NCBI GenBank assembly: GCA_035221665.1
Contig: CM069150.1
Coordinates: 36,580,001 to 36,644,000, forward strand
Origin: Okamejei kenojei
Taxonomy: Eukaryota
DNA length: 64,000 nt
Direction of reading: 5' to 3'
Part shown: one piece after another, positions 36,706 to 60,099 of the stretch
How the letters are laid out: every line of letters starts with the position of its first letter
Position numbering within the stretch: the first letter of the stretch is position 1
The notes under the pieces: model-generated
What the model saw: only the letters and a program-made list of their open reading frames with translations
Database searches by the model: none
Told to the model about the DNA's origin: nothing
Program-made: the position numbers and the translations under genes

Positions 36706-36812
36706 AAATAATAAGTAGTATAAGTAAATGTTTTGTGACTGCAGATTGCTCATAAACTTTGCATATCAATGAAAATCAATTCTAAGTATGTTTATTATGT
36801 AATTTATTTCAG

Positions 36813-37652
36813 TGCCTATCATTAAAACAGAACCTATTGAAGAGTGTGAAGGTGCCATATTCTGCAATGCTGCGTACAATGGAACCATGCCGCAGTTTTA
36901 TTATACGCAGCAGGTCATGATCCCTAACCCCACTTCCTGTCTTGGGGGGAGCATGACTTCCTGTCGTTCGGGATTCTCTCCACAGGATTCCAAGTATCAG
37001 CAACAGAGTCCAATAGGAGCTGCCTATCCGAGATCCAAAGGTGGCAGTCCAAATCATCTCGGCTATCAAGCATCTGCTGTGATGGTGCCAACAATCCCGA
37101 TAATTCAAGATCCCCACAGATCTGTGCTGGTTCATGCCGGGTCACCTGCCCAGTCTTCAATGCTGCGCCAGTCTCCCAACAATCAGTCTTCTGCAATAAT
37201 TCATCATTCCCCAAACAACCGCGAGGCTTCCTCCATGCTCCAAACCTCTCCCACCAACCACCAGTCACCCATGATACAACGCTCCCCAACCCGCCAGCAG
37301 TTTTCTTCCATGATCCACCATTCACCCGCCAGCCATCCGTTGAGATACAGCAGTCACCAGGATTACCAGCAGCAGGTGTATTCAGAGAACGATCCCCAGG
37401 TGTCTATTGTGCGATCCACCACGCCACAACCTGTGCATCATCACGTGCAAAAAAGCAGCCAAAATCAATACCCAGCTGCGACTCATCCACAACAGCAAAC
37501 ATCCAATGCAATCCAGAAGGTGTCCAAGGACAGCCCCTCGCCAAGCCATCTTGCAACATTGATAATGGATCAGCAGGAGAAAGAAACGACAAGTACTGCA
37601 GTCACAGTGAAACAGGAGCCACAGAACCTTGACCAGGCATATCTGGATGACG
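36813..37652 (+). CDS. NFATC2: NFATC2 large coding exon, C-terminal transactivation region, 840 bp
   Basis: tttcag| acceptor and g|gtaagg donor. Translates (V)PIIKTEP...DPHRSVLVHAGS...VTVKQEPQNLDQAYLDD; HRSVLVHAGS and the KQE...NLDQxYLDD end match NFATC2. Two psi-K-x-E SUMO consensus sites (IKTE, VKQE). Confidence 0.96.
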
Positions 37653-37894
37653 GTAAGGACCAATTCTTGTTTTGAAGACATTGGTGCAGCTAAGGTCCCA
37701 GCAGTAAACTTCTCAAAATATGTTTTTTTTTAAAAATCTGCATTATGCCCCTTGAATGATATGTATTATAAGTAATATTCTTTGATGAAGATACATTCTA
37801 TTTGAGTATTCACTAATTGGTAGGGATGAGAGTCAGGATTGGGAGACTAGGAATCCGCATCTGCTACTTTTTGAAGATTGGTAGCTTCCAGGAA

Positions 37895-38338
37895 GGTCAT
37901 AGAGTGATACAGCATGAAAACAGGCCTAATGTGCCCACACCGACCAGTAGGTCCCACCTACCCGCGTTTGGTCCATATTCCTCTCAACCTGCCCTATACA
38001 TGTACGTCTAAATGTTTCTGAAACATTGCAATAGTACCTGCCTCAACTAGCTCCTCTGGCAGCTCATTCCACACACCACCACCCTTTGTGTGAAAAAGTT
38101 ACCCCTCATGTTCCTATTAAATCATTCCACCATCACCTAAAACCTATGTCGTCTGGTTCTCGATTCCACCTACTCTGGGCAAGAGTAAATATGCATCTAC
38201 TCGATCTATTCCTCTCATGATTTGGTACACCTCTAGAAGATCACCCCTCGCCCTCCTGCGCTCCAAGGAATAGAGTCCTAGCCTGCTCAGCCTCTTCCCA
38301 TAGCTCAGGCCCTCGAGTCCTGGCAATACCCTCGTAAA
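37895..38338 (-). mobile_element. CR1 3' end
   Basis: ORF 38144-38326 reads [38 protein letters not shown]. Confidence 0.88.
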
Positions 38339-40309
38339 GTGGAAAGGTTAAGTGCAACACAAAGCACTCCTTACACAGATTGATGCCTCCACCTTGCTTG
38401 GCTATATTAAATTTTCCTGACCAATTTTCCTCACGTCTGAAACTATCCTGCAATGAATAAGCAACATTTGTTTTTTTCCTTATTATGATGGTACATTCAC
38501 TGAAATGGAATAAGACTTTCTAAAATAATTTAACTGTGAAAATAATACCCAGCAGGAAAAAAAGAAATGCTGCAGTTAGATTTGGACCTTATTTGTGGAG
38601 GTGAAAATGTGCAGAGTGAAGCATTCCCCTTTTTATCATGCTAATGCAGTTTTTGTGGTTAAATTGTGCCAGCCTTACCTTAGGCCCGTGTTTGCCTGAG
38701 AATGATTCATGTCTTATGTACATATTTACTTTATCCACAAAATAATTTGGAATTATGCACGAGTAATAGAAAGCTTGAAGGTAAGTGAGCAGTCAGTCGG
38801 TTTGTTATTTTTACTCTGAGTTTTCTGATTTGGATGGAATAACTGGAGAATTATTTTGGACCTCACCATAGTGTAAACTGCCAGCATGTGTGAAATATTC
38901 AATGGTAGGTGATTATGATCTCAGCCTTGCTCTGGCTTATAGAACCCAATGTAACTTCCTATACGTGGCACTGTGAGACACATGAAGTTGTGCTCCCTCT
39001 AGATATTCTTGTTTCAGTCCCCATAATTGGCATTTGTACAAATCGAACACACAGGAGCTTGTGTTCCGAGCCAGTGTCATGTCTAGCCCTTTAGGCATTA
39101 CATTTACAACTGACGTTTGTGTTAACTTTCTGATAATAACTTCTACGATACGTAAACGCAGGCAGTTTTATTAGGTACATGACGCTCATGTGGAGGGAAC
39201 TGAAAACGTGAAGAGTAAAAGCTGGAGGGTTTGCACACAACACAGTTCAAAGGTAGAAGTGAACAATATCCTGGTTAAAGCCCAAAACGTCTATTGGAAA
39301 GTTTTAGAAAACAAAAAAAAAAATCCATATAATATATTTGTAATCTCTCTGGAATATGTAGTTGGAATTTAAAACTCAACAACTCAGTCACATCAGCTTA
39401 CATTTGCAAAACAAATCCAAAATCAATGATCTTGGATCCATCTATTCCCTCAATGCCCCTAAATTTCTTACATATAATCGATTGTCCGTTTAAAGCCTAT
39501 TTTCCTTCCATTGCATTTACATAGCTGTCAGGCAAGGATAGGATTTGGCATAGTTATGAAACCCCAGATGATCGAACAGTTTCAGACACAGCACAGAGTA
39601 AAATCCGATTTACCTAATTCTGCCAAGCGTTAGTGTAAAACTGGCTTGGAATTCCAGGCAGATGAGTCTTTCATTGGGGCTGGTGTGGACAGCTGAAGTC
39701 AGACACCTTTATCCTCAACAAGCGTGCCTACCAGAGAGCAGTTTAATTCTCAGACTCCTGGAAGCCATAGGGCAGCCACGTTTCCTAAATGCTATGCTTT
39801 TCTGATAATTAGGATAAAACTCAAGCAGGAATAACTCGATGATCCAGGTTAGTAACTGGCAATAACATACTGGATTCAATTTGCTTCTGAATGGATTCAT
39901 CCCAAGTACTCTTGGCTGAACTCCCGGACTCTTAGGAATTGTCAACCTGTTCAGACCCTTTCCTTCATTTAGGAGATTCTTCATGTAGCTAGTAATAAGG
40001 TAATAAGCTTTGCTGGAGTGAAGCACTTGTACTTTATATTCATTCCTCTTTTATATCAGTTTTGCTCATTCCAGTGTAAATAGTTTGATATGTGCCCTAG
40101 TTCCTCTGATGCTGTTAAAGTATTGGTTGAATTTGCACAACAGGAAGTTCTATGAGCACAAAATGTGTCTACTTGTAGTCAATGCTAAGTTGCCAGGGAT
40201 TTTTTATTCTTTTACAATTTTTAAAGTGAATTATGGCACATCCCTTATCTGCTAAAGATGTTGAACCCTAATGGACACAACTTCCCCAGGCTCCAGATAC
40301 CACTGACAT

Positions 40310-40510
40310 GACGATGGAAAAATCAAACTACTGGAGAAACTCAACGGGTCAGGCAGCACCTGAGGAGGCAAAAGGATAGTCACCATTTCAGGCCAAAGAA
40401 ACTGTGACATAATATCAGCGTCCTAAAGCTGGGTCACAACCCACCCACCATCCCTTTGCATCTACAGATGCTGCCTGACTCACTGAATTGTCCCAGCATC
40501 TCCGCAGCCT
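40310..40510. mobile_element. Degenerate fold-back element
   Basis: ctggagaaactcaacgggtcaggcagca ... tgctgcctgactcactgaatt. Confidence 0.6.
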
Positions 40511-41711
40511 CTTGTGGCTCCACTGAAATGATGACCATTGTTTGATTCATTGTCTAAAATGTGATTCCTGATTCCCATTTAAAAGCTTGCACAGACAATG
40601 CGGCTTTGCGCTCTGGAAAACCATGATATGGACAATTCGAGGAACAAACCCCCCTCACTTGTTACGTCACCTGCACAGCAGACATTTAATATTGTTAGTT
40701 TAGTTCGGTTTAGTTTATTACTCTCACAAATACAGAGGTACCGTGAGAAGATTTTATTGTTGCATGCTACCCAGTCAGCGAAAAAAAAACTACACTTGAT
40801 TACAATCAACCACTTCACAGTGTACAGATACAGTTATGTGGCACAGTCACATCGCAGTGCAGCTTTCTGTTGCTACAAAGAATCCATTATTGTAAGCCAC
40901 ACTTTACTCATGGTTGTAGCTCCATTAGAGAATAGAACAAATTAAATCTCAATTTAAAAAAAAAAATTGAGGATAGAGTTTCATTTAAGAAGAGTTTTCA
41001 ATGTTGGAATTTGACAGTATCGTCAACTGGGAGGTGAACATTTATACTCATGGCTGGTAGCTTAGCTAGTGATCAAATATAATTCGGAAGCATTATTGTT
41101 ACAACTTTCTTACTTATTATAACTTTAATGTAATTTAATGGGATTTGTAAATGCGTACATATTCCTACATCAGTAGATGGGGAGCGATCGTGCCACATAG
41201 CCTTGCTTTTAATGGAACTTGCTTTAATGGCATTTAGATCTTAATAATAAAGATCCATTGTGAGTATTGTGGGATCACATTGTGATTTCTTTTTTTAATT
41301 CTTATTTGTTGCTTTTGATGGACTGGAATCTGGAGGAAAGCATCCTTGGCATTGAAAGCTCATTTACAATTATCCTCAAAGGGAATTAGATGAGGAAAAA
41401 TAAATCCACCTTCTCTTCGACTTACAAGCAGTCAGCTTACTCCCCGCTCTATTAATTCTTACCTTTTAATTGGGAAACCCAGCTGTTAAGTCAAAACCCA
41501 CAGTAGAGGATAATAAAGTGCATGCAATTATAGGGGAACAGAAGGAAAACGTTCATCAGGAAGAAGGCTGAGCAAGCAAAATTCCACTTTTATTGATGTC
41601 TACATTAATATCCAAGATATGATTGACGTATAATGTTTATATCCTATTGATATTTTCATTCAGTGGCAGTCAGCTGGTCTAGTTGCGTTGATACTACCAA
41701 GGCGTAATAGA

Positions 41712-41914
41712 AGAGAGGCACAAAATGCTGGAGTAACTCAGTGGGACAGACACTGTCTCTGGAGAGAAGGAATGGGAGACGTTTCAGGTCAAGACCCTTC
41801 ATCAGAAGCCACACATTCCTTCTCTCCATTGATGCTGCCTGTCCTGCTGAGTTACTCCAGTATTTTGTGTCTATCGACGGTATAAACAAGCATCTGCAGT
41901 TCCTTCCTACACAG
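41712..41914. mobile_element. Fold-back element with TSD
   Basis: Inverted arms; ggc(g/a)taataga at 41701-41711 and 41915-41925. Confidence 0.8.
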
Positions 41915-42724
41915 GGCATAATAGAGACTGGCTGGCAGCGATCGCTTGTCATTGATAAAATAAGTCTTATGTAACCCATATGTACTGGGCCAATGTACAA
42001 TGAAAACCAAATTTGCCAACCCAGTGTCTTCGAGCAAGCCATTCATATACTGCAACATTCCTCCTACACCACACTCTGCACAGTAGGTGTGAAGAGTTCT
42101 GGTGTTTTGTTGAATACCATCTCCAACCTCATTGGTATCTGAGGAGCAGATGCTGGAGGAGGGTGAAGGGGAAGAGGTTCAGGAGAAGGATGGAGCAAAA
42201 GAAGGTACTATAGATCTTACTTTTCTTTATGAGCTGTCCTTGAGGAACTCATGCAAGAACTTACCCAAATGCAAATCTTGCAACCACAATCTAAATTCCC
42301 TGTTCACTAGATGTTAGACAGCCACTGGCCTTCACTGCCTCCGCTTGGCCAAAGCACAAACATGAAAGCCAACAAAATAAACTTTGTAGACCAAATTTAT
42401 AATTTACGTTATGCTATGTCCCATGCAAGACAACTATTCGCATATTTTGGATTCACTTGATCCCTGTCTTCTGTGTGCTCCAGCCAATGCAATACTAACT
42501 CAGTGGCTGCTGGAGAGCCAACGATTTCCAGTGGAGTAAGTTGTAGAACCCTTAGGAGCAGTTCTGGAGCTAGAGGCCTGAGCATCCTGACATGGGTAAC
42601 AATAGCCTAGGGCTTGTGATGGGTACGATAGCAAATGCTGCCATCCCATCAGAGAGGACAAAGGGGCAGTAATCCACAAATACTTTCCTACTCCATCTGG
42701 ACAACAGCCTGAGTTTGTATGGAA

Positions 42725-42825
42725 AATAAACACAAGATTCTGGAGTAACTCAGCAAGTCAGGCAGCATCTCTGGAGAAAATGGGTAGGTTACTTTTAAAG
42801 TCGGGATCTTGAGTTCTTCAGACGT
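42725..42825 (-). mobile_element. Fold-back element arm
   Basis: ctggagtaactcagcaagtcaggcagcatctctggag...ttcttcagac. Confidence 0.7.
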
Positions 42826-43644
42826 GAGTTGATCCAGATTAAGGTCTGTAGGAAACAGGCAGAAAAGTGGAGCTGAAGCCAAGACCAGATTAGCCACATA
42901 TTCGTCGAACAGCACAGAAGCATGCGGGAGCCACATGGTGTACTCTTGTTATTGTTTCTTTATTTCGTACGTCTTTATTTTAATGGAGAAAACTGACACT
43001 CTTTTGGACTTTGTACAATTAAAACTTTCTTCCAAGAGTGAACATCAGCACAATATTTGAAAAAAAATCGGAGATTAATCTAAACTAAATCTAGCACATC
43101 TTAAAAAAATGCGTCTGGGGAATCTGAATCTAGAACCTTGTAGATTTGGCCTTTAGTATTCCAAAAAGTATTCCAAAACAGACACAAATAAGATAAGTTA
43201 TCAGGTCTATTGAACCTGGCTCCCTAATGGAATCTGACTACAAGTTTATAGTTCAGATTGGGCTATGAGTCAATAATGTTTTAAACCGTCAGCCTCAGAT
43301 TAGTTAACATTGGGCCAGCTCTTGACCACTAAATGGACTGAGGCTCAGTACTTTATTTAGAGCCTAGTTAACCCACTGGAGTCCTAACTATGCGTCAAGG
43401 TGAGGAATAAGATACTATATAAGTCATCAGGCTTTGTTCGCATTATCTGTAGCCAAGTCAGGATTGGGTGGGATTTTAATTATAAACCCACGCTGATCTC
43501 TATCCTTGAAAGCAAAAATGCACATGACTTGCCTGAATTTGGGCATGTGAGTTTGCAAAGTAAAAAGCGCTGATCCTTCTGATTGTATGCTACAATTATC
43601 ATCACAGTGAGGTGGATTGAAATTGAGATAGTGATATACTTCAC

Positions 43645-44055
43645 AAGATCACAAGTTATAGAAGTAGAATTAGGCCATTCGGCCCATCAAGTCTACTCTG
43701 CCATTCAATCATGGCTGATCTCTGCCTCCTAATCCCATTTTCCTGCCTTCTCCCCATAACCCTTGACACCCGTTTTAATCAAGAATTTGTCTGTCTCTGC
43801 CTTAAAAATATCCACTGACTACGGGTCCACAGCAATCTGTGGCAATGAGTTCCACAGATGAACTACCCTTTGACTAATGTCCTCACCTCCTTTCTAAAAG
43901 AGCGCCCTTTAATTCTGAGGCTATAACCTCTGGTCCTAGACTCTCCCACACGTGGAGATATCCTTCCCACATCCACTCTATCTATGCCTTTCATTATTCT
44001 GTAAGTTTCAATGAGGCCCCCCCTCAACCTTCTAAACTCCAGCGAGTACAGGCCC
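43645..44055 (-). mobile_element. CR1 3' end
   Basis: Aligns with 34500-34822 and 60922-61340. Confidence 0.82.
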
Positions 44056-44254
44056 TAATGTAACTTGTCCTTTAGGCAACTCCTTTACCCAGTACTGGTA
44101 TGAATAAGCCACAAACATCTTATATTGCCTGAATTATATCACATTTCAATAATCATCCAAAAATTTAGCAAACAAAAAGCGCTTTTATAACTTTCTTTTT
44201 AAGGAATTATACCTAAGGAAATGATTTATAAAATAATGAGACGCAACTGTCATA

Positions 44255-44680
44255 TGCTGAGAGAATGGAGCAGCTGGGCTTGTACACTCAGGAGTTTTGA
44301 AGGATGAGAGGATATCTCATTGAAACATATAAGATTGTTCAGGGCTTGGCCACATGTTTGGTTCCCGATGTTGGGGGAGTCCAGAACCAGGGGTCACAGT
44401 TTAAGAATAAGGAGTAAGCCATTTAGAACAGAGACAAGGAAACATTTTTTCTCACAGAGAGTGGTGAGTCTGTGGAACTCTCTGCCTCAGAGGGCGGTGG
44501 AGGCAGGTTCTCTGGATGCTTTCAAGGGAGAGCTAGATAGGGCTCTTAAAAATAGCGGAGTCAGGGGAGATGGCAGGAACGGGGTACTGATAGGGGATGA
44601 TCAGCCATGATCAAATTGAATGGTGGTGCTGGCTCGAAGGGCCAAATAGCCTACTCCTGCACCCATTGTCTATTGTCTAT
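44255..44680 (+). mobile_element. CR1 3' end
   Basis: ORF 44320-44610 reads GESRTRGHSLRIR...FSQRVVSLWNSLPQRAVEA. Confidence 0.88.
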
Positions 44681-44694
44681 TAACTAACTGGCTT

Positions 44695-44925
44695 AGGTTC
44701 AGATCATGTGATAGGTGCAGAATTGGGCCATTCAGACCATCAGGTCTACTCTGCCATTCAATCATGTCTGATCTATCTCTCTCTTCTAACCCCATCCTCC
44801 TGCCTTCTCCCCATAACCCCTGACAGCCATCCTAATCAAGAATCTATCTCTGCCTTAAAAATATCCATTGACTTGGCCTCCACAGCCTTCAGTGGCAATG
44901 AATTCCACAGATTCACCACCCTGAT
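44695..44925 (-). mobile_element. CR1 3' end, tail-to-tail with the previous copy
   Basis: ataggtgcagaattgggccattc...gaattccacagattcaccaccct. Confidence 0.8.
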
Positions 44926-46173
44926 TAAACACAACTGTACAGCTGTGATTCTCATTCTTGTGACTCATGAGGGAGCATAACTCAAAGATATATACTTTAC
45001 ATCTAATAACTAATTGAGAGTTAAAATATAGCTTATTGTATTTCTATTAAAATAATTAATCTTCCAGTTTCATGCTGCAGTTTTAACATGGTAAGTATTG
45101 GTAATTTAGTTATAAAACATGGTTAAATGATAGCATTCCTACCCTTTCTTTATATGAGTGCTAAGTTGAACTTCACCACCCATGTTTTTGTAAGGTTAGC
45201 GTTTCCAAGAGATAAACAGATGAGTTATTTTCTGTTACAAACCAACGGCATTGGATCAGGATGCTACTCCTAAACCTGTGGGATTTAAGTTTACTATCAG
45301 CAACATGAGCTCAGGCCTATGCACTGGTCCCTAGTGAGTTAAGCCGATGCCTTTTATGACTCTACGATTTTCTTTGCTGAATTCTACGTCTAAAAGTTCA
45401 GTCATTACCTTCTGGGAAAGTAAATCTTGATAAATGACATTTGTACATGGCTATAGTTAAGTGACTGCAGCAGTTTTCAATATAATTGCAGTATTTCTGA
45501 AGTTCATCCATTGAAGTGACTTGATCTTAGATACTTTTAATGGTACAGAAAATGATGTTACAGTGCTTTGCTACAACTAATGTGCCACGGACTCAGGATT
45601 CAAAAACATAATTTGAGCCAGACACAAAAAGCTGGAATAACTCAGCGGGACTGGCAGCATCTCTGGAGAGAAGGAATGGGTGATGGTTTTCTGAGAAAAA
45701 GAGTGCAGCTTTGACCCAACAGTGGTAGGCGAGCGGAGGGGATGATGGCGTTACTGACACAAATGTAAAATACAGTCTTTGGTCTAAAGTTTAGTCATAA
45801 AATACAGTCTTTGGTCTAAACTCCTGACAGCCATCCTAATCAAGAATCTATCTCTGCCTTAAAAATATCCATTGACTTGGCCTCTACAGCCTTCAGTGGC
45901 AATGAATTCCACAGATTCACCACCCTGATTAAACACAACTGTACAGCTGTGATTCTCATTCTTGTGGGAGAACTTTGAGGGAGCATAACTCAAAGATATA
46001 TACTTTACATCTAATAACTAATTGAGAGTTAAAATATAGCTTATTGTATTTCTATTAAAATAATTAATCTTCCAGTTTCATGCTGCAGTTTTAACATGGT
46101 AAGTATTGGTAATTTAGTTATAAAACATGGTTAAATGATAGCATTCCTACCCTTTCTTTATATGAGTGCTAAG
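44819..46173. repeat. Local direct duplication of ~350 bp (44819-45165 and 45823-46173)
   Basis: Near-identical copies that include non-repetitive sequence; they differ at one visible substitution and one short tract. Confidence 0.92.
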
Positions 46174-46512
46174 CATCTGGATCTTATTTAAATGTAGCGC
46201 AAAGAGGGTGTCAAGCAGCTGCCTTCTTGCATGCAAGTAGCAGGAAGAGGACTGTTGGAGGAGGGAAAGGAAAAGCTCAGGAAACATCCCGAAGTAGAGG
46301 TGAATGAGCCAAGATCATATGTGCTCAGCTGAGTCCATGTGGCATTTACGCAATCTTCAAGCTTTGCTAAACTAAAAGTATGTCACTTTCAGGCTGATAA
46401 CTTATAATGGCATGGGATTGTCCTCAAAAGGCCCCGACCAAATGTAATAAACGAAAGCAGAAATGTTATTAAGGAAATCCATCCTCTATCCTTCCTCTGC
46501 CTCTTTACACTC

Positions 46513-46692
46513 TATATACATACACACACGTATACACACATGTACACGCACACACACCTGTACACACGCACATGAACACTCACGCACACACATGTACACA
46601 GGCATATATACACACATATACACACATGTATGTATACACATGTGTACACACACATGCATGCATGCAAGCACACAGACACACACGTACACGCA
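46513..46692. repeat. Degenerate (CA/TA/CG)n purine-pyrimidine microsatellite
   Basis: Seen directly. Confidence 0.9.
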
Positions 46693-46954
46693 AACCGGTT
46701 CCACATCAGTTTGGGGTTTACAGGGGTTTACAGGACGTGGCTGACAACCTGCAAATCCTCGTCCATTCTCCCCCAATCGCTTGCTTCTCTCTGCCAATCC
46801 ATCCAACGTGTATCCTTTCTAATCCCAGCAATTGCAACCTCAAAGGATACATAGAAAAACATTGGAGGGCAAATTGTAACATTCCCGCCACTTATTAATA
46901 TACAAGCAGATGTTTACTATTGTGCTGGGTATGTAATTTAGAAAGTCATCGGAA

Positions 46955-47070
46955 ACCAGAGATCTCAGAGAAAACCCACACAGGTCATGGGGAGAACGTA
47001 CAAACTCCATAAAGACAGCACCAATAGTCAGGATCGAACCTGGGTAAGGCAGCAACTTTACCACTGTGCC
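46955..47070 (-). mobile_element. V-SINE partial
   Basis: caggtcatggggagaacgtacaaactcc...caggatcgaacc. Confidence 0.72.
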
Positions 47071-47356
47071 CTACTCTGAATAAAGATCTGCCATGCTCAG
47101 GGGATTATAGCTAGGAGTGTACATGCCAATTTCCCAGAGGAGCCGAATCAAAATGGAAATGATTGCTATTGCAATTTAACATATACAAAACAATATTTAT
47201 GCCCATAAAGATTAGTTGTGACCAATTTCTAGCAGTTTATACACTTTCCTTACTTTTAGCAATAATAGAATTTTGATCTGCCTCTGTTAATATCATACAT
47301 AAGTTTTCTGTTAACGACAAAATGTAGAATGGCAATTGCCATGTTGGTTCCCATAG

Positions 47357-47612
47357 ATAGACACAAAGTGCTGGAGTAACTCAGCGGGTCAGGCTGCATC
47401 TCATGGAGAAAGAGGATAGGTGAAGTTTCAGGGGTGGGACCTTTCTTCAGACTGAAGAATGGTTCCCATAGATGGACACAAAATGCTGGAGTAACTCAGT
47501 GGGACAGGCTGTAGGCATTCCTTCTCTCCAGAGATGCTACCTGTCTTGCTGAGTTACTCCAACATTTTGTGTCTATCTTCGAGTTAAACCAGCATCTGCA
47601 GTTCTTTCCTGC
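47357..47612. mobile_element. Compound fold-back element (two left arms, one right arm)
   Basis: tggttcccatagat precedes both left arms, and a degenerate copy follows the right arm. Confidence 0.78.
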
Positions 47613-48783
47613 ATGAATAGTTCTCATGGATTTGGTTTCATTTGTTCACAGGATGTGAACTTCCTCGCAAGGTGGTATTTATTGGCCACCCTTCAGTGGT
47701 CCTTCCAGGCCATTTTGTAGAACAACTGACGCAACCTAATTTTGCTGTGGGATAGGAATCAATAGAGGCTAGAATAGGTCAGAGCAATGAGTTTCCAGCC
47801 CTGAAGGAAATTAGTGAATCATATGGCATATGTGAATCAAATGACAAATTGATAGTTTTATGATCACCATTATTGATATCTATTTCAAAATTTCTTCGAA
47901 AGTTAAATTAAAATCCATCATTTGGGATTTGAACATTCTAGATACAAGGTTTAAAGGGCCAAATGCAGGTATGGACCAGTATATGGACCAGTTGAAGGGC
48001 CTGTTTTCATGTTGTATGGCTCCATGGCTCTATCCAGGCTTCTGTTTAATATTTTACCACCATGCCGCTCTACACTGATGCAGTTGTTTAGAGGCTTATT
48101 TCTTTTGTGGTTCATTAATGCTAGGAAATTATAATAAAAACCTGAAGATTAACTTTAAGCCTTCTGACTGATGCACCTAATGTAATTAGGTTTTTATAGG
48201 GTCAAAAAATTAACAATGCTGCTATTTTATCTCATAAACCATTTGCTACTTTTGCATTTAGCATTGAAGCAATGGAGTGTTTCAGTTTACAAAGTGATCA
48301 TAATGTATTTTCCATTTTATAGTTTTTCATTTCATTTCCATAAGTCCTATGCTTATTTGAATGGAATGCAAATAATTTGGCAACAGCTTCAAAATCGCCT
48401 TGTGTTTTTTATGTGACAGCAACAGAAATAATTTCTTTGAGGTAGTCTTCATCTCTTGCCTTTTCAAATCATTAGTGTGAGGCCAAACTAGAACATTCAT
48501 TTTCCTTTTTTTGTTTACCAATGATTTATGAGACATTTTTGTTGGAGAATTGGGAATTTGCAATGAATAGTGCCAGTGTTTGGATTAGCTTAGTTCTAAT
48601 TCATTGTAAATGGTACTGGGACTGGGGGAAGTAGAAGTAATGGGGAAAATCGTAAAGTCAAAGAATCATACAGCATGGAAACAGGCCCTTCGGCCCAATG
48701 CTTAGATACCGGCAAAGTAGCCCCATCTCAGCTAGTCCCATTTGCGATGTTACCTTCAGCGGCCAAATCAGTGCAAAATGTTT

Positions 48784-49003
48784 AGGAAGGAACTGCAGAT
48801 GCTTGTTTAAACGGAAGATGGACACAAAATGCTGGAGTAACTCAGCGAGACAGGCAGCATCTCTGGAGTGAAGGAATGGGTGACGTTCCGGGTCGAGACC
48901 CGTCTCCAGCCTGAAGAAGGGTCTCGACTCGAAACGTCACCCACTCCATCTCTCCAGAGATGGTGCCTGTCCCGCTGAGTTACTCCAGCATTTTGTGTCT
49001 AAC
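48784..49003. mobile_element. Most complete fold-back hammerhead element, with 12-bp TSD
   Basis: Arms ~48821-48908 and ~48911-49000 are reverse complements; core at 48911-48938; tgcaaaatgttt at 48772-48783 and 49004-49015. Confidence 0.88.
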
Positions 49004-50137
49004 TGCAAAATGTTTTTTTGACAAGGAATATTGAATACACTCCATATCCAGAGCCCTCTGAGTTCACACCACGAAGAGTGGATAGCTTGCTAAAATGAGC
49101 AATGTTGCCTAATCTGATCTTGTCTGGGATTTTTCAAAGGGTTGTTGAAACTTTTTAATGCATATTTTAAGCATAATTATTGCTCACAGATTGATACTAA
49201 AAGTGACATTTTTCTTCTCTTCTTGGACTGATGATCAAAGTGATATTGTATCTGGGCTCTGTTCAAAGAACTTTCTACAGCTCATTATTATTCCAGTAAA
49301 GCTTTTGTGGTAAAGCTGGCTATGTAAGTCCTGGAGTTTTACAATCTGCTAGACCTCGGTGGTAATGGTAGTATACAGAAGAAGGTAAATCTTGCTGTTT
49401 TATTATAATAGCACATGCATTTAAATCTGCAGTGTACCATTTTGTGGACTTTGTTTGGCTAGATTTCAAAATGGAAATCTAGCCTGTGTATATATATTTA
49501 AATATATATTCAATAAATATAGAAAATATGCATTCAGTATATTCAATTAAAAATCGCTGTTCTCAAATCCTCCATGACTCATTTGCAAGTGCTCTGAGTA
49601 ATGTGTCATCTGGCATAAAAGAGCAGGGTGGTTCCTATTTAATTTTCGGTTTTTGCTGAGTTCCTCGGCTTGAAAATGGTGTGTTTGGGAGAAAGAAGGA
49701 GGGAGGAAACAGGAATCACAGTGCTCATTGGATCAAAGAGAAAATAAATCATATAGGATTTGCTACTCCTATTTTCTAATCCATGGCTGTAAATGTTTCG
49801 TGTATGAAGACATCCAGATCCTCTATGCAGTGGCATTCTGTGATCTCTCTCCATTTAAACAATATTTAGCTATTCTTCCGACCAAAGGGAATGACCTTAC
49901 AATTCCCCACATTATAACTCATCCACTAAATTTGCACCCTCCCTTGAGATCTACTCAAAATCCTTTTCCAGACACTTTCTGTCCTCCTCACAATTCAGTC
50001 TCTCATCCAACTTTGGATAGTCAGCAAATCTGTCTTTGGTTCCTGTTCCTCAGCCATGAATATAAACTGTAAATAATTGAGGCTTCAGCACTGATCCCTA
50101 TGGCCCCTCACTGGTTACACAATGCCCGTTTTATCTT

Positions 50138-50437
50138 ATAGTTTAGTTTAGAAATACAGTGTGGATACAGGCCCTTCAGCCCACTGAGTCCGTGCTGACC
50201 AACGGTCACTCACACATTAATTCTATCTTACACACCGGGTCCTATTTTACAGAAGCCATTTAACCTACAAACCCGCATGTCTTTAGGATGTGGAAGCAAA
50301 CCGGAGCATCCAGAGGAAACCCACGTGGTCACAGGGAGAACGTACAAACTCCACACAGACAGCACCCGAGGTCCAGATCAAACCCGAATCTCTGGCGCTG
50401 TAAGGTAGCAATTCTACCGCTGCACCACTGGGCCGCT
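50138..50437 (-). mobile_element. V-SINE inserted in an older CR1-like remnant (~49830-50900)
   Basis: Full SINE blocks; flanks contain gcttcagcactgatccc, similar to the CR1 RT region at ~33130. Confidence 0.78.
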
Positions 50438-51013
50438 GGTTCTCTATTTCCTATTAGTTGGCCAGTCATCTATCCATGGTAATACATAATCCCTCAAAGC
50501 AACCTTGTGCAATCACCTTCAATGTGACATCTTATTGATTGCCATTTGGAAATTCAGATGCATGGCATCTACGATATCCTCATGTATTACACTCTCCAAA
50601 AACTCCAATAAGTTTGTAAACATTATTTCACTTTCATAAAACTATCTCCAATGTGATTTTCTAAATGTCCTGCTGTTACTTCCTCAAAACTGGATTTTAG
50701 CACTTTTCCCAATGAGGGATGCTAAGATGACAATCCTGTGACTTCCTGCTTCCTGTCTTCCTTCTTGAATAGGAATGTTACATTTGCAGGTTTCCAATTT
50801 ATTGGCACCTTTCCAGAGTTAAGGTAATTTTGGAAATTTATGCTGAAACCCATCCTTTACCTCTGCACCTCCTTAATTTAACGTGCTATCATTTGGACCA
50901 TCAGGTCAAGGAAATTATGCACTTTAGTCTCCCTGGACAAAAAAAATAGACTGCTGCAGGAACTCTTGATCAGGCGGCGTATGTGGTGTGGGGGGGGGGG
51001 GGGGGGGGGGGGG

Positions 51014-51685
51014 AATAGTTGCAGATATTTAAAAGTGGCAATACAGGTAGATATGATGGTCAAAAAGGCTTTCGGCACATTGGCCTTGATCAGTCAGTGT
51101 ATTGAATAAAGACATTTTTAGGTCATGTTGCAGTTATATAAGATGTTGGTGAGGCCGCATTTAAGTATTCAGTTTTGCGGACCATGTTATATGGAAGAAT
51201 GCTGGAAAAGGTGTAAAGAAGCTTTACGAGGATGTTGCCTGGGCTTGAGGGCCTGAGCTTTAGGGAAAGGTTGAACAGGCTGGGACTCTATTCGTTGGAG
51301 CGCAGGGGGATGAGTGGTGATCTTATTGACGTGTACAAAATCATCAGAGGAATAGATCGGGTAAATGCACAGAGTCTCTTGCCCAGAGTAGGAGAATCGA
51401 GAACCAGGGGACATAGCATGGGGGGGGGGGGTAAAGATTTAATAGGAATCTAAGGAGTAACTTCTTTACACAAAGGATGGTGGGTGTATGAAACGAGCTG
51501 CCGGAGCAGGTAGTTGAGGCAGGTACTTTTGCGACATTTAAGAAACATTTTGAATATTGGCAGGATAGGTTTAGAGGCAGGGATATGGGCCAAACGCAGG
51601 CAGGTGGGACGAGTGTAGATGGGGCATGTTGGTCGGCATGGGAAAGTTGGGCTGAAGGGCTAAACACCCTATAACTCTATGACTA
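51014..51685 (+). mobile_element. CR1-type LINE 3' part
   Basis: ORF 51232-51453 reads [37 protein letters not shown]; (ctatga)n-like tail. Confidence 0.88.
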
Positions 51686-52494
51686 AATGCACAGATGATG
51701 TTTCAAGTCAGAACCCATCTTCAGACATAATCTGAGCAAATCATTTCAACCCCATAACCTGAAGCTCCAGTTCCGGATGGGAACTCCATTCATTGTGTTT
51801 CACTAAGCAAAATGCGTTTCTAATAAGAATCTCCGGGAGTGTCTACAAAACCATAGCTAACATCGCAACTATATCTTGAGGTGTAATGCTTCGTTACTTT
51901 AAGCCTTGTTATTATGTCACCTGCCATTTCCCCAGTTCCTATTTTGCTATAAAAATGCTTCTATCCACACTCCCAATGTTATTTTTTTCTGAAAATCATT
52001 TAATATAATTGGATGTATGTCACCAGATTCACATCAGTTGCTTTTCCAAGTTATATCTTTGCAATGAAATGTTCGCATTCTGCTTAACTCCTATTATGAA
52101 GTCTACCTCTTTCCCGCTGATTTGTTTAAAATTATAAAAGTTTTGTAAACCAATTTTTTTCCCTCTTTTTTATTCCCTTTTATATTTGCGTTTTATTCCC
52201 TCTTGTCTCATTTCTTTTCATGAAATGGCATTCACCTCTGGGCAAAAATCTGTATCCTGTTCATCTGGACATTATTATTCTTTTTTATTTTGCGGTGTTA
52301 TGGTACTAAAGTAACTAGATGTCTTTAAATCTATTCCACGTAATTCCAAATGCCACACTTTCTGTGGGAAAGCAAGTCTGAGTGAGATCCTAAAAGGCAG
52401 CAACGTTTAAAGAGCAATTTCTGTCAGGAACTGGACCGTCAAGATTGAGATGGAAATGACTTGTTCACATTATGAGCATTAGGTCAGAGGTTAT

Positions 52495-52855
52495 ATAGAT
52501 AGAGTGGGTGTGGAGAGAATGTTTATTGTAGTGCAAGAGTCTAGGACTAGAGGTCATACCCTCGGAATTAAAGGACGTTATTTTAGGAAGGAGATGAGGA
52601 GGAATTTCTTCAGTCAGAGGGTGGTGAATCCGTCGAATTCATTTCCACTGAAGGCTGTGGAGGCCAAGTCAATGGATATTTTTAAGGCAGAGATAGATAG
52701 ATAGATTCTTGATTAGTACAGGTGTCAGGGGTTATGCAGAGAAGGAAGGAGAATGGGGTTAGGAGGAGAGATAGATCAGCTGTGATTGAATGGCAGTGTA
52801 GACTTGATGGGCTGAATGGCCTGATTGTCTCCTATCTTTTATGAACTTATGAACA
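52495..52855 (+). mobile_element. CR1 3' end
   Basis: ORF 52504-52704 reads ESRTRGHTLGIKGR...FSQRVVN. Confidence 0.85.
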
Positions 52856-53257
52856 GTCTAGGAGCAGAGTTCAACAGTTTGGGAGTTATTTTACTGATAG
52901 GATGGATACATGTGGAATACAACTGGGTTACTTAAGCATCCCTGTTTGAGAGGCCAGTTTTAACAGGCAATTTAGGGTCTAATTGCTGACTACCATTATT
53001 TGAATTTTCCTTGGATGCAAAAGTAAAAGATTTGGCATTTGACCACAGACCAGAAGCATTTCATGAGCAGTTGCTTCTGACGAAATACCAGGCAGCCTTT
53101 TTAATATGTGCTAGCAGTTAGTTTAAATGACATTTATCCTCATAAGAACCCATGAATACTTACTTCTGTCTTTTGGTTCAGTTCCCTTACAAAATTAACG
53201 CCTTGTACTAAACTCAGATCGAGGCGATGTTTCTGCTGAAGGTACCACCATCACGTC

Positions 53258-53400
53258 AAGTTCATAAATTCTATGCGCAGAATTAGGCCATTCGGCCCGT
53301 CACGTCTACTCTGCCATTTAATCACGACTGATCTATCTTTCCCTCTCAACCCCATTCCCCTGCCTTGTCCCCATAACACCTGACACCCATACTAATCAAG
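53258..53400 (-). mobile_element. CR1 3' UTR fragment
   Basis: agaattaggccattcggccc...ctaatcaagaa; inverted relative to 52495-52855. Confidence 0.75.
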
Positions 53401-53609
53401 AACTCCAGACTCTTGTTATCAAAATAAACTGTCAAAAAAAACAAATCTTTATATGGTGTCCACACATTTAGCTTTCCTTTCCAAATAATCAGATATGTTT
53501 AATTTTCCAAATCATTTTTTTTTTTGTCGTTTAATTTTATTTTGAATCTGAAAAAATAATTTAAAAAATGGAATGATTTCATAATGAAATGAGAGTGAGG
53601 CCGAGAAGT

Positions 53610-53930
53610 CGCAGCACAGTGCCACAGCGGTAGAGTTGCTGCCTTACAGCACCAGAGACCTGGGTTCGATCCTCACTACAGGTGCTGTCTGTATGGAGTT
53701 TGTACGTTCTCCCCGTGACCGCTTGGGCTTCCTGCGGGTGCTCTGGTTTCCTCCAACTTTCCAACATTCCAAAGATGTACAGGTTTGCGGGTTAATTGAC
53801 TTTGGTAAGTTGCAAAAAAAATTGTCCCTAGTGTGTAGGATAGTGTTAGCGTACGGGGTGATCGCTGGTTGCCACGGACGCGGTGGGCTGAAGGGCCTCT
53901 TTCCACGCTGTATCTCTAAAGTCCAAAGTC
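53610..53930 (+). mobile_element. V-SINE, full length
   Basis: Head with gggttcgatcc through to tgtatctctaaagtc tail. Confidence 0.88.
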
Positions 53931-56900
53931 GCATAGATCATACTCAGTGGTGCACAGTGGCCCACTCAATATTCTTTTGGAGAGCTACACAGCATTAAGT
54001 TGCAGAATAGGGCTCACATAATTTGTGATTGTAAAGGCCCTTCCACGGTATGGTCCACTGTTGCAAAGGTAAACAGTTAAGTCATGAACAGTTATGGGAG
54101 GATTAAGGTTTCGGGCAGGGAATCAGAATCTCAAGGAGTGAACAGCTACAAAACAGGCTACTGGGGCTTGGAAAATGTTGGTTTGGTAATTGTGGGTATT
54201 GACAATAATCAGACTAATGAAGGGAATCCACAATCTCGTCAATGGGATAAGGTTGGCCTTAATAGGGGGAAGTAGGAGGCAACCTTCTGATGTGGCTAGT
54301 TGCAGTGAAACACACAGCAATGGCTATATTTTGTGTTGGAGATTTTTGGGCAGTGTAGAACATCTGGCCGGAGATTGGGAATTTGTCAAGAGCTGGGACA
54401 GAAATTGGAGGTACTGTAAGGTGTTGAGAATATGATAATGCCCATGGGTCAGGCTAGATGTAATGGGCATCAGGCAGGAGAAACAAGATGTAATAAAAAT
54501 GAACTGCAGATACTGGTTTATACCAAAGATAGACACGGAATGCTGCAATAAATCAGCGGCATTTCTGGAGAAAATGGATAGGTAACATCTGGTAGTAGGG
54601 GCTCCAGTGGCAAGGATCAACCTTATGATCAGAGTGGGGTATTGTCTGATCTACTGATGGGTGGCGATATGGGTATGATTGCTGAAGAGGGTCAGTGCAG
54701 AGTAGATGGCGCGCTCAGTGCGGGGTGGCAAGGCCATTGGCTAGTGGAGAGGAGGGGACAATAATTTTGCAGGGTCCATGGGATTCCCAGAAGCAGAACT
54801 CTCAGGCAGGTAACAAAAGTCAACTTCACATGGAAATAGTTTAAAGATGCTCCTTCACAATGTTGATATTACTGTGCATGTTTGACTATGGAACTTGCTG
54901 TAAGGCCACACGTATAAGTGGTCTGCTACGTGTTAAAAATTCAAGCCCTACCAATCATGGAAATGTATTTGAGTATCTCTGAAAACTGCTGCAAGTATGT
55001 TGGCCTACAACATTGGAAGATTGGAATGCAATGGAGGGAAATTTTGCTTTGAAGGTAGATATGACTTTGAAAATTTACCAGAATTATACTAGAGGTGAAT
55101 GGTGAAGTAAACTGGAAAAATAATAAGAAAGATCCAAAAGTTATTTGTTCCAGTATAGAAATCCAAAATAAGAAGACTCAATCTAGAAATGAGGCCTGAC
55201 CCAATAGGAATGAAACCCACTAGCACTGTCTCATTTAGAGGCCAGTAGGAAGCTGATGCTCTTTCTCATGGATGCAGAATCAATTGAAATTTTTAAAATG
55301 TATTAGATTTGTAGGGGATAGGAATATTAAAGATATATGATGCAAGTTGAGACAAGTGGATTTGACCCATGGTCAAAGAATATAACAATTGTGAGACGAT
55401 GCATGGGTCTCTCCTGTTCTCATGGACAATCCTTTATGCTTAGTTTAGTTTAGAGATACAGCATAGAAACAGGCCCTTCAGCCCACCAGGTCAATGCTGC
55501 CCATCGATCACCCATTAAGTTGCTACTATTGTGAGCATAAGCTGGCTTTATCACTTGGTGTTTGCTGTTGGCTTTTGTATTCTGTCATATTTATTTTGTT
55601 GAATTTGATGTATTGCCTTTCCACACCTCAAACCATTCACATAACGATTTAACTTTGCAAACACTGCAATATTTTAAACCAGTTAAGTCGAGTCTACATA
55701 TTGTAAATCAATCAAGGCCAAATCACACCTCTAATTCATGTCTTTGTAGTGTATTTCACACAGGTTGCAGTATGTACATTACTGGCCTAATTCATATTAT
55801 CTAAAGAAGGTCTACTTTTATTGACCTAGGCGGGCTAGAGGGGGGAAATTATCCCATTTTAAGTATTCCAGCCTTGTCATAATGGATTAATTGTTGTGGG
55901 GATAATTGGTAAAGAAACTTATTACAGTTTTATAGGTCAACCACATTTTGATGTGAGGGCCAACTAAATTAAGTTGCACCAGTGAAACTGAGTTTTTTTT
56001 ACAGAAACTTCATGGGACTTCTTCAAAAGGCTGGAGCACTTTAATCAGGTATGTAGCGAAGATTTGATTGCTGACAAAGAAATGGGATAAAACTTTTATT
56101 AATGTATCGTAGATTGATTTTTTTTTTGAGCATTCACTGGAGATATGGTTACATTCAGGGGACATGATATGTGAGAGAATCTGGTCTGCACGCAGAAATA
56201 GCTTGCTTAAGTGAAAGAAAGGAAACGGCAGCTTTAAGTCAGGGAGTCCCTGTCTGTAACACCCAGACAGAGGTAAGCCGGGGCTGTGAAAAAACAAAAA
56301 TTCAATTTTCAAGTCTGCAAAATACAGTGCACTCTTTTATAACTGGACATATCAAATTTGTTATGATAGCAAAGCCAGCTCTATGGCAACTGTTGTAACG
56401 CTTTGGAGCTGACTGCCCAGGAAGGATGGGGAAAGCCGTTTTGTTTGTTGTTTCTGGCAGGGCTTGCTGGCTTAACTCACTCTTATTCTGTAGGGGGACC
56501 TTTGAGAGCATTCTTTTCCATACCAGAAGCCCTGCCAATCTGGCAGGGCTCATCGCTGCTCCCACACCTCCTCACAACACCCTCCCCGTCCTATTTTCAG
56601 CTGTTTGCCACCAAAATGTCTGATCTCCCCCAAACGCGGCTGCAGAGGTTAATGGAAAAAATTAAGTGCGCATGGCACGTCGCAGAAATTTGTTGCATTG
56701 CTTAACAAGGCTTCCCCTCTATAAACAGCTCTTGTAAACCGCTGTGCACAGCTATCTGCCGTACTTCTTATTCACTGCCGCAGTGCCAAGCGTGAAACCT
56801 TTTGATCATTTTCTCCAACTAAAGTGAAAATAATGAGGGTTTGGTTTACAGGTAGATTTTGACACTCAGCAATTTTGTGTTTAATTCCGTAATGAAAGCC

Positions 56901-57780
56901 ACATTGGGATTTCTGTTCAGTGAGTGCTGATGCCTGTAATAAACTTGCCAGATAGAAGAGGCTTCTGATGAGATGACTGGAAAATACAAAATAGCAACTG
57001 TAGGGATAGTGTTTTTATCCAGTTCACAATCTGTCAAAAGCATTGTGCTCTGTGAGTGATATGTTAATGTTTTCACTGGGTCTGCCCATATTCTACATGT
57101 CCCGCATAGTTGCTGCTATGAGTCACTGACAACTCAATGGATTTTCTGTGTCCAAAATATAATAAGCTTATCTACGTTCCTGTTTATTCAGTGATTGGTG
57201 TTCTTTGATACTGGATGTGCAATGCCAAATTCTTCCAAAGATATCAACATTTGACATTGATGGATGTTCTTAAATTATGATAGGAAGATCTGGCTGGGTA
57301 TCTGCATTATAAACCAAACCACAGATTTTATTCAGAGTCTTGCAAAAGAAGGAGACCAAGGTTCTTATCTATGGTGCAAAAAGTGTGCATCTTTTTAATC
57401 AACAAAACAACTTACATTTTCTTTTTGGGCTGTCAGAATGGAAATCGCATAATTTGAATTTTGGTGAATCTCATCTTTTAGTTCAGCTAACCAGTGTGGC
57501 AAAATTATCATCCAATTATAACCCAAATCAGAAGAAAAAAGATATAAAATCAGAATGCAGAAATATCTAAATATGCATTGTAATAATTTGAAATCTACTT
57601 TCACAGAGAATGTCAGAAGTTGTGGTTTATTAATACCAAGCTAGGTTTGGGGTGAATACTCAGCTGAGAAAATACAGTCTAAGTTGTCCCAATATGGAGG
57701 ATAATACTAATGCCTCATACCTTGCTTATAAAGTGCTCAAGGAGCCCATTAAGATCTTTGATGCTGCAGGGCTCAATGTA

Positions 57781-58005
57781 ATCTGCAGATGCTAGTTTCG
57801 ACCGAAGATAGACAAAAAAAGCTGGCGTAACTCAGCGAGACAGGCAGCATTTCTGGAGAAAAGGAATAGGTGACGTTTTGGGTTGAGATCCTTCTGCAGA
57901 CTGAGAGTCAGGGAAAAGGAAAACGAGAGATATAGTTTGTGATTATAGAGAGATATAGGACAAATGAATGAAAGATATGCATAAAGTAACGATGATCAAG
58001 GAAAG
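57781..58005 (-). mobile_element. Fold-back family arm with 5' extension
   Basis: ctgcagatgct...tgacgttttgggttgagatccttctgcagactgagagtcaggg, continuing into purine-rich sequence. Confidence 0.65.
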
Positions 58006-58607
58006 GTAGTAATCCTGTGATAATCCTGGTTTCGGACATTTCAATGCTGGGAGGCATCTTGAGATTCCATAGTGAATCCACCCCCTCTCACACCCACCAC
58101 AGATCTGATTTACTGTTAAAGTAAATAAATAGTAAATGATGGCCAATTCATATGTGAGTTCCAAAAATGCAGTTCTTTCAGACATGTTCTCATGCCAGGA
58201 TTACTTCATGTGAAGATTTATCTGAACTGTGTCGCTCAGAGTTTATTTAAATTTCTTGAAAGTGTGCACACTGCTGGCTGGGGGCTCAATACGTTTAACT
58301 GGTGGATGTGGAGGTTCTGTACGTGTGTGTGTGTGTGAGCACTCGTGTGGAACTGTCTGCTCTATCTGGCAGTCAAAACCACAGACAGACAGGCCTGAGG
58401 TCGGTCGGTACATGGGGCTGCACTTTGAAGTAACAGTGCAGTTCTGCACTCTTTCAGTTCACTTGTTAGATAAAGAGCATCAATGATTAGACATTTAGCT
58501 CTTAAAATATGTGACCAACCTTTTGCTGTTTCAAATTATTTAGAATAAACCTGAGGTGGGTGAGGGGGGAGGGGGTCAAGAAAACCAATATGATTTGCTT
58601 TTTGAAT

Positions 58608-58897
58608 TGTTTAGTTTAGTTCAGTTTAGTTTAGTTTAGAGTTACCGGGTGGAAACAGGCCCTTCGGCTCATCAAGTTCACAATGAACAGGAACACCAGG
58701 AACAATTTACAGAAGCCAATTAACCAACAAACCTGTACGTCTTTGGAATGTGGGAGGAAACCCGAAGCAACCAGGGAAAACCCACACGGTCACGGGGAGA
58801 GCGTGCAAACTCCATACGGACAGCACCTGTAGTCAGGATCAACCCAGGTCTTTGACGCTGTAAGGCAGCTACTCTACCACTGCGTCATTGTGCCGCG
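58608..58897 (-). mobile_element. V-SINE
   Basis: (tttag)n tail through to head. Confidence 0.82.
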
Positions 58898-59454
58898 CAT
58901 AATTGCTTGTAATAAAATGGTAAATTTTCCTTTGGATGCATCTCTGCAAATATAGAGCAACATGTTTTCAGGTTAACACGTGTCCCATTAAAATCCAAAG
59001 ATTTATTTTGCAAGGCAAGGCAAGATGATCAGTTGTCGTTGTATTTGCACTGTCAGCATTTCACTCTGGTATGGAAAATTCTAAACCACAGCAACTGACA
59101 CACAGTAACAAATGTTGTACCTGAAAACAAGCAGTTACCACCCACATGTTCAGCATTGCAATGAACTTCCACAGTTGAACAGCCACAAAGCAATGAAAAT
59201 GTACAGCTAGGGACTTTGAGATACTGCTGCCAGTTGAAGACATGATTGTTACTAAGGTACAGCCATTGATACAACAAACATCATCATATTTTGGAATAGA
59301 ATAGCCTTCCTGGAAGTTCAAGTTGAATGAGGTTGATCAAAAGGACATTTGTATAGTTTGATCAAGATGTCTGAATGAGAGGTGATGTGATTGGAATAAG
59401 TTGTCAACCAGATTCACTTCCAGCTTTACTAACACCGAACCAAATTAAGACAAA

Positions 59455-59750
59455 GCCAGAGGACATAGGTTTAAGGTGGTGGGGGGGGGGGGGGAGAGAT
59501 TTAATAGGAACCTGAGCATTAACATTTTTACACAAAGGGTGGTGGGTGTATGGAATGAGCTGCCAGAGGAGGTAGTTGAGGCAGGTACTATTGCAACGTT
59601 TAAGAAGCATTTAGGTAGGTGCATGGATTGGACAAATTTAGAGGGATATGGGCAAAACGCATGCAGGTGGGACTAGTGTGGATGAGGCATATTGGGCGGT
59701 GTGGGCAAGTTGGGTCGAAGGGCCTGTTTCCACTCTGTAAGATTCTATGA
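59455..59750 (+). mobile_element. CR1 3' end
   Basis: ORF 59476-59676 reads FTQRVVGVWNELPEEVVEAGTIATFKKHL. Confidence 0.85.
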
Positions 59751-59919
59751 CGAAGTTTTAACAAGCTATAATTGCAAACTTCATTTTCTCCTGTCTTGCA
59801 ATTGATCAATGACACCGTCATTGCAGTTATCCCAATGAAATTAAGCAGGTGGGCAGGGCAGAAATAACATCTCTAATTGACAATTTTAATGGCAAAGAAA
59901 ATGTTCAAAAAATGCAAAA

Positions 59920-60050
59920 AGAAAGAACTGCAGATGCTGGTTTACACAAAAGGACAAAAGTGCTGGAGTAATTCAGCAGGTCAGGCAGCGTCTCTGGAGA
60001 ACATGGTCAGTCTGAACAAGGTTCAGAGACGCTGCCTGACCCGCTGTTAC
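59920..60050. mobile_element. Internally deleted fold-back element
   Basis: ggtcaggcagcgtctctg ... cagagacgctgcctgacc inverted pair. Confidence 0.7.
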
Positions 60051-60099
60051 ATCCATTAATTAATTAGTTTTACATCCAAAAGTAATTGCTTCACATTGC

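Follow-up and report, generated by a model that had tools for sequence, protein, structure and literature searches.

Hammerhead-bearing fold-back and solo repeats with Penelope-like anatomy at the skate NFATC2 locus

A dense repeat family in and around NFATC2

The window analysed here is a 64,000-nucleotide stretch of Okamejei kenojei contig CM069150.1 (assembly GCA_035221665.1, positions 36,580,001 to 36,644,000), and all coordinates below refer to it. It holds five plus-strand exons of the skate NFATC2 gene (7511-7705, 12565-12705, 30253-30309, 31259-31417 and 36809-37651), and the open frame at 36851-37657 is 98% identical to a Leucoraja erinacea NFATC2 cluster and 93% to Rhinoraja. Copies of the repeat described below that lie before 37651 are intronic in NFATC2. 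Since the last ~18 NFATC2 residues were not located, copies beyond 37651 lie either in the last intron or downstream of the gene. The orientation of the copies relative to NFATC2 showed no bias (6 versus 10, P = 0.45).

Other repeats share the window. LINE fragments, which we take from their motifs to be CR1-like, occur at 32754-33281, with a reverse transcriptase (RT) domain match, and in 13 further segments (e.g. 22619-23063 and 43640-45165). A second abundant family is SINE-like, ~300 bp long and presumably akin to V-SINEs, with about 15 copies (1291-1573, 4095-4413, 50129-50444, 53603-53927, 63348-63669 and others), two of which host insertions of the family studied here. There is also an assembly gap of 234 N at 60100-60333, a 21-bp minisatellite of seven copies at 63013-63167 and a two-copy 173-bp repeat (14891-15063 with 19667-19839).

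The focal element at 48772-49015 consists of a 220-nt body between perfect 12-bp target-site duplications (TSDs; 48772..48783 and 49004..49015, plus strand, 12 of 12 identical), as the original prediction had it for both the direct repeats and the fold-back body. Numbering each arm from the C of CUGA (+1), the body comprises a long arm on the minus strand (48784..48909, +1..+126) and a short, tail-less arm on the plus strand (48911..49003, +1..+93), placed head to head around a centre base at 48910 that lies within the self-complementary TCAG-N-CTGA. For the body, folding predicts a hairpin of ~92 bp (-154.4 kcal/mol, z -17.6) that leaves about 35 nt unpaired on one side; the unpaired tail (+94..+126) is present on that side only, at 48784..48816 of the minus strand. 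The short arm opens with a minimal type I hammerhead core on the plus strand (48911..48938; CUGAAGAA / 4-bp helix II / GAAA / CGUC) whose putative cleavage site follows 48938, while the core of the long arm (48909-48882) carries two core substitutions.

The family is built from a ~130-nt arm, in which a minimal hammerhead core is followed by ~100 nt. A profile built from 33 arms gave 43 matches in the window at E<0.01, grouped in 25 clusters and covering 3895 bp (6.1%), and zero matches in the reversed-sequence control. By our own count these represent about 27-28 insertions, or about one per 2.3 kb. The original prediction had spoken of about 25 copies or fragments of a palindromic element; only about 13 insertions are two-armed, and the others are single arms. 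The arms divide into subfamilies A and B, alongside a few older, divergent relatives at 6030-6119 (plus strand), 17518-17778, 40294-40501 and 51685-51726. Identity to the consensus ranged from 0.71 to 0.945 among 27 arms, the lowest values including misaligned junction sequence, so that no copy is recent: the copies are old and decaying. Folding of seven single-arm sequences gave z values between -0.5 and +1.7, which means that the arm by itself has no stable structure.

Further two-armed copies with TSDs were mapped at 18573..18793 (14 bp, within a SINE-like repeat), 36452..36680 (9 bp, in a SINE-like 3' end), 41701..41925 (11 bp), 61604..61824 (12 bp) and, for subfamily B, 14148..14474 (10 bp, with a ~90-nt spacer). 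Two more subfamily B copies, for which no TSD was found, are the one at 33400..33694, with a ~44-nt tandem hammerhead duplication, and the decayed one at 59915..60055. Single arms comprise a tail-less arm with an 11-bp TSD (20442..20560, plus strand), an arm without a full tail (30003..30110, plus strand) and a tail-bearing arm (57775..57912, minus strand) that has 12 nt upstream of its core in common with the 30003 arm. The remaining single arms and fragments, spread over 3476..60767, lie at 3476, 9112, 16686, 17518-17778, 21204, 40294-40501, 42721, 45616, 51685, 54496 and 60646.

Target sites and two discrete 3' ends

Direct repeats at the element boundaries scored at least 8 in 9 of 26 loci, compared with 3.3% of 642 cross-locus pairs (P = 8e-8), one of the nine scores (locus 47332A) being inflated by adjacent element sequence. 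Across 10 targets the TSDs measured 9, 10, 10, 11, 11, 12, 12, 13, 14 and 16 bp, shared no motif and had an AT content of 63% against 60% for the window. Their length is thus variable, as predicted, and all six direct repeats listed beforehand were found in place. Two of these need qualification: gg(t/c)ctgttt (36452/36672) reached a cross-locus score of only 6 but is backed by empty sites in 13 SINE-like paralogs, and the repeat at 20442/20550 is present as a TSD but bounds a single arm rather than a palindrome. In an empty-site test of eight insertions, the two that lie within other repeats (at 18573 and 36452) had paralogs, 7 and 13 respectively, that show the target once; the other six had no paralog for comparison.

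At two places among the ~28 insertions a target is present three times and joins different subfamilies. At 16201..16576 the target is 16 bp long; of the two adjacent insertions that share it, one (16217-16417) is two-armed and belongs to subfamily A, while the other (16434-16560) is a single arm from a different subfamily and carries a 39-nt tandem hammerhead. The target at 47342-47627 is shared by a single arm (47355-47455) and a two-armed copy (47470-47614). Two insertion pairs within 16 bp are expected with a probability of about 0.017. This suggests that one nick site was reused, or that a single event drew on two templates.

The 3' ends of the arms fall into two classes. In all eight TSD-bounded pairs one arm ended at +125..132 and its partner at +89..101. 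Five short-arm ends were placed by alignment (+93, +94, +94, +94 and +101, the last of them beyond the main cluster) and three, in arms with internal indels, by eye (about +89, +91 and +93), while three TSD-bounded single arms ended at +87, +94 and +95. Altogether, 18 of the 19 TSD-defined ends lay within +87..95 or +125..132 (P = 6e-11, with windows set post hoc), or 15 of 19 without the three corrections by eye. One long and one short end in eight of eight pairs would have a probability of 0.5^8 = 0.004 if the arms were independent with even odds. As the three tail-less single arms have TSDs of their own, +~93 appears to be a priming end by itself. The arms are unequal in length, as had been noted before, but not at random: one side is longer by a fixed ~35 nt. 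We rejected the idea that both ends lie at a fixed distance from CCAGCAT boxes (+75 and +105), the distances being unequal at about 18 and 24 nt.

These boundaries bear on two conventional origins. Long internal inverted repeats in dense, non-coding copies are what one would expect if a DDE transposase had mobilised a MITE or fold-back DNA transposon, yet we give this origin hardly any chance. The TSDs lack a fixed length and motif; about half of the loci are single arms, three of them with their own TSDs; and no transposase domain was found among 364 open frames. Moreover, the termini of eight two-armed copies, which are free of poly(A), match in only 2-9 of 20 nt, and since they are not inverted repeats the family is not a MITE. 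The original prediction had argued against a MITE from TSD length and the lack of symmetric ends, and this conclusion stands.

It is also highly improbable that the family is a SINE mobilised by a LINE (CR1, L1 or RTE) and inverted by twin priming. CR1-like fragments are common in the window, the RT fragment at 32754-33281 adjoins the 33400 locus, and variable TSDs occur with some LINEs. Against this, LINE twin priming inverts sequence without duplicating it, the copies end in neither poly(A) nor a simple-repeat tail, and the tail matches no other repeat in the window save for 15 nt beside a CR1-like end. A hammerhead core combined with a one-sided tail is, in addition, a feature of Penelope-like elements (PLEs).

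Hammerhead core and centre junction

A minimal-hammerhead descriptor gave 11 matches in the window, 10 of them in arms of the family, compared with 0.03 per shuffle, and the core fits the published consensus of PLE minimal hammerheads (PMC4209133). The Rfam hammerhead models gave no match in the window even at E<=10, just sub-threshold hairpin look-alikes. Cores on both strands had been predicted, but the descriptor found at most one intact core per locus, and the focal minus-strand core has two substitutions. Helix I comprised 0-2 bp in all 11 matches, was 69% paired in the alignment and cannot form in the focal copy. Helix II was 89% paired, which is not evidence for the fold, as four of the five measures were reached by 31-41 of 500 shuffles and the covariation score by 10 of them; on the plus strand of the focal hairpin its pair probability is 2e-15. 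The expected excess conservation of the core did not reach significance (195/216 versus 1552/1800, or 0.90 versus 0.86 elsewhere, P = 0.11). Such an excess would not be anticipated in copies that decay neutrally, so this comparison is weak either way.

Two observations made by eye concern former or residual ribozyme function. In the 6030 relative the helix I strands pair over 5 bp beside one mismatched closing pair, a sole case which hints that the abundant subfamilies lost a longer helix I. Furthermore, 5 of 14 5' ends away from the centre fell at +29..35 (P = 0.01, post hoc), one of them exactly at +29, the putative cleavage site, where the short arm of 36452..36680 begins; this speaks in favour of some ribozyme use. 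Weak helices are no proof of inactivity either, since the anole ribozyme cleaves only with protein (PMC11167929). On balance, the core of the skate family is probably defective, and it was probably inherited from the end of a PLE and is needless for insertion.

Short head-to-tail duplications of the hammerhead region, resembling partial tandems in miniature, are present at 16487-16562 (39 nt), 33514-33600 (~44 nt) and 21317-21329 (12 nt).

The original prediction had described the family as retrozyme-like. An active retrozyme would consist of tandem hammerhead units that self-cleave, circularise and are retroposed. The two longer tandem duplications would suit such an active retrozyme, as would the five 5' ends just 3' of the cleavage site and the palindromic ACGU step after GAAA, which dimeric minimal hammerheads need (PMC4209133). 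Like metazoan non-LTR retrozymes, the family is non-coding, hammerhead-bearing and PLE-related, with TSDs longer than 4 bp (PMC7229834; bioRxiv 10.64898/2026.07.22.740005). The units of non-LTR retrozymes, however, are 150-450 bp long, stand in tandem and carry canonical type I hammerheads that self-cleave (PMC7229834), and they give circular RNAs, whereas the skate arms are inverted or solo with a minimal core. We found neither tandem units of 150-450 bp nor a canonical type I hammerhead with a 6-bp helix I and loop contacts; the window holds no tandem array of whole units, and the second core of the 16433 tandem lacks G8. Together with the short helix I, the burial of the core in the hairpin and its unexceptional conservation, this makes an active retrozyme improbable, and this part of the prediction was not upheld.

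The centre of the palindrome had been given as cttcag-N-ctgaag with the arms running on from it. This was found in the focal element and, rearranged, at 18573, but the other junctions differ: all 13 that we compared were distinct, some having lost the head of the short arm and others that of the long arm. Judging from single arms, the self-complementary 9-mer TCAG-T-CTGA belongs to the parent sequence. About 20 of 34 mapped arms start between -12 and +4, and 250-nt upstream flanks of 15 arms had no common homology beyond 12 nt other than the inverted arms themselves. Arms at the same locus share more non-consensus variants than expected (15 versus a permuted mean of 5.1, P = 0.002, 10 loci) and differ from each other by 8-29%. 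Of 10 short arms, just two had their closest long arm at the same locus, so that the shared signal is at the level of the subfamily only. These data fit arms that were identical at insertion and then decayed independently, and they fit a palindrome that arose in the course of insertion, either because two cDNAs annealed or through fold-back at the 9-mer.

Could a fixed palindromic master instead have been transcribed whole and retroposed, with junctions and lengths varying later? The short ends cluster tightly at +89..95, as the end of a fixed master would, and hairpin tips are prone to deletion, so that the variety of junctions could stem from later deletions there. We nevertheless regard such a master as unlikely. 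Both subfamilies form pairs whose arms match in subfamily, tail-less single arms have their own TSDs in three cases, the heads lost belong to the short arm at some loci and to the long arm at others, and the arm sequence would be hidden in a 92-bp hairpin RNA. Provided that the copies are Penelope-derived, as argued below, we therefore lean towards a palindrome made anew at each insertion rather than copied from a palindromic master. Self-priming has been proposed for such PLE palindromes (PMC3846280), and we infer the double-priming version from the extension of both target strands described in PMC11167929.

Penelope-like anatomy and a possible mode of insertion

The anatomy of the family points to PLE pseudo-LTRs (pLTRs), four hallmarks of which are present: a minimal hammerhead, a one-sided tail, a head-to-head palindromic junction and TSDs of variable length. 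Pen2a_Av of Adineta has inverted pLTRs with a one-sided 31-bp tail, 8-10-bp TSDs and a palindrome at the junction (PMC3846280), and PMC8557442 gives the PLE tail as 30-40 bp on one side. On anatomical grounds, the one-sided 30-40-nt extension of the skate copies is this Penelope tail. Because the asymmetry of the arms matches the published tail, and their layout the head-to-head pLTRs, the case for a Penelope-type family is stronger than when it was first proposed.

The family resembles endonuclease-positive PLEs (PMC3846280, PMC8557442) in its head-to-head pLTRs, junction palindrome, one-sided tail and solo pLTRs; unlike them, it has no ORF between or beside the repeats, its insertions span 100-330 bp and its TSDs reach 16 bp. 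Its density of about one insertion per 2.3 kb contrasts with the very low copy number in Adineta. Opposite-strand pairs of minimal hammerheads 100-700 bp apart have been ascribed to truncated PLEs (PMC4209133), and the skate copies share with these metazoan hammerheads both the dispersal as single motifs and opposite-strand pairs and the organisation CUGANGAH / short helix II opening with G-C / GAAA-C-G-U-C without helix III. Helix I is mostly 3-6 bp in those examples, with some of 2 bp, as opposed to 0-2 bp here, and cartilaginous fish are absent from the 56 rows of the alignment in Figure S3 of that paper. Among cartilaginous fish, Penelope elements are on record from the whale shark (PMC8455134) and from the only chondrichthyan included in bioRxiv 10.64898/2026.07.22.740005; PMC8969392 and PMC6155905 provide further background.

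Pfam searches of the 364 N-free, stop-free frames of at least 55 aa in the window detected no GIY-YIG, PLE RT or transposase domain, the matches being confined to Rel-homology exons, a single LINE RT fragment and three others, weak and unrelated. The family is thus non-autonomous within the window, as predicted. A search of an arm's open frame against longer proteins returned one match from one candidate, an unnamed protein without a domain. As neither flanks, frames nor protein search linked any arm to a PLE ORF, the mobiliser is deduced from anatomy: the copies are, with good probability, ORF-less Penelope pLTRs inserted in trans by the RT and GIY-YIG endonuclease of a PLE.

The best-studied counterpart for such insertion is Poseidon PAc of Anolis (PMC11167929). 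There, cleavage and extension affect both target strands, the tail lies between two internal start sites situated about 85-92 nt 3' of the hammerhead cut, hammerhead mutants leave in-vitro insertion unaffected, and in vitro the start site does not differ between strands. The skate copies likewise have a tail between two ends, with both target strands probably extended, but PAc is autonomous, with an ORF that starts in helix II, and the two skate ends are at distances of about 65 and 100 nt from the putative cut, on its 3' side.

By analogy, the arm would be the 3' part of a PLE pLTR, with the minimal hammerhead core, ~65 nt and an optional ~35-nt tail. The endonuclease would nick both strands 9-16 nt apart, reverse transcription would start internally on the RNA, at +~93 or at +~129, and both target ends would be extended, one from each start site. 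The two cDNAs would then be joined head to head, mostly near TCAG-N-CTGA just 5' of the core; alternatively, one cDNA might fold back at this motif. A single arm would arise when just one target end is extended, and in two-armed copies the hammerhead core would be unable to fold. Three points count against this scheme, or are left unexplained by it. Most loci (all but 9 of 26) fall short of the TSD score threshold; the published start sites lie closer together than the two skate ends, unless further sites exist; and since the anole start sites show no strand difference in vitro, the one-long-one-short rule does not follow from them.

A variant of this pLTR explanation, which we rate as possible though the lesser option, is that the RNA inserted was that of an autonomous PLE and that the copies are severely 5'-truncated, the RT halting or turning back at the hammerhead region. 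5' truncation, together with an inverted partner, is the usual state of PLE insertions (PMC8557442), most animal minimal hammerheads are ascribed to truncated PLEs (PMC4209133), the 12 nt upstream of the core are common to two arms, and the 14148 arms resemble each other, by eye, for ~25 nt upstream. On the other hand, the arm starts concentrate between -12 and +4, upstream homology in the 15 flanks ends within 12 nt, inverted arms aside, and no arm reaches coding sequence.

More specifically, and only tentatively, the family may be a dedicated Penelope parasite of ~135 nt that accounts for ~6% of skate intronic DNA, no longer has a functional ribozyme, forms a fresh hairpin at each insertion, follows a strict rule of one tail site and one tail-less site, and has its targets reused by different subfamilies. 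If so, every copy would preserve the trace of a single double-priming event by a dimeric PLE enzyme; PLE integration could then be read across the whole genome, and skate introns would contain an abundant source of double-stranded RNA.

In the literature covered, which took in few subscription papers, we found no description of the arm family in skates. Related repeats presumably abound in the genomes of sharks and rays, and automatic repeat libraries likely contain them. Parts of the picture are already known, as the layout is that of Penelope elements; what seems less described so far is an ORF-less miniature at such density, with strict long/short pairing and shared triplicated targets. The insertion footprints are unusually regular, and the short, cleanly assembling, TSD-bearing copies make it possible to count how ends pair, how often junctions show microhomology, how many 5' ends fall at the cleavage site and how often a target is hit again. 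The family is therefore a good natural dataset for the mechanism of Penelope integration, in which integration itself, inverted ends, the origin of the tail and the use of the hammerhead are treated as open questions in PMC11167929, PMC8557442 and PMC3846280. Should the density extrapolated from this one window hold genome-wide, the family would be a major skate repeat, liable to be mislabelled as a MITE by automatic tools, and a source of long hairpins in pre-mRNA.

Two minor observations concern the surroundings of individual arms. About 370 bp upstream of the 57780 arm there is a 9-bp match (57766-57774 / 58283-58291, approximate), which may be the TSD of a longer insertion of ~500 bp or a chance match; the sequence upstream of this arm contains no PLE-like frame and has no second copy in the window. 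A possible tail-only fragment lies at 32135-32153, right after a CR1-like 3' end (E 0.48, with a 15-nt exact match).
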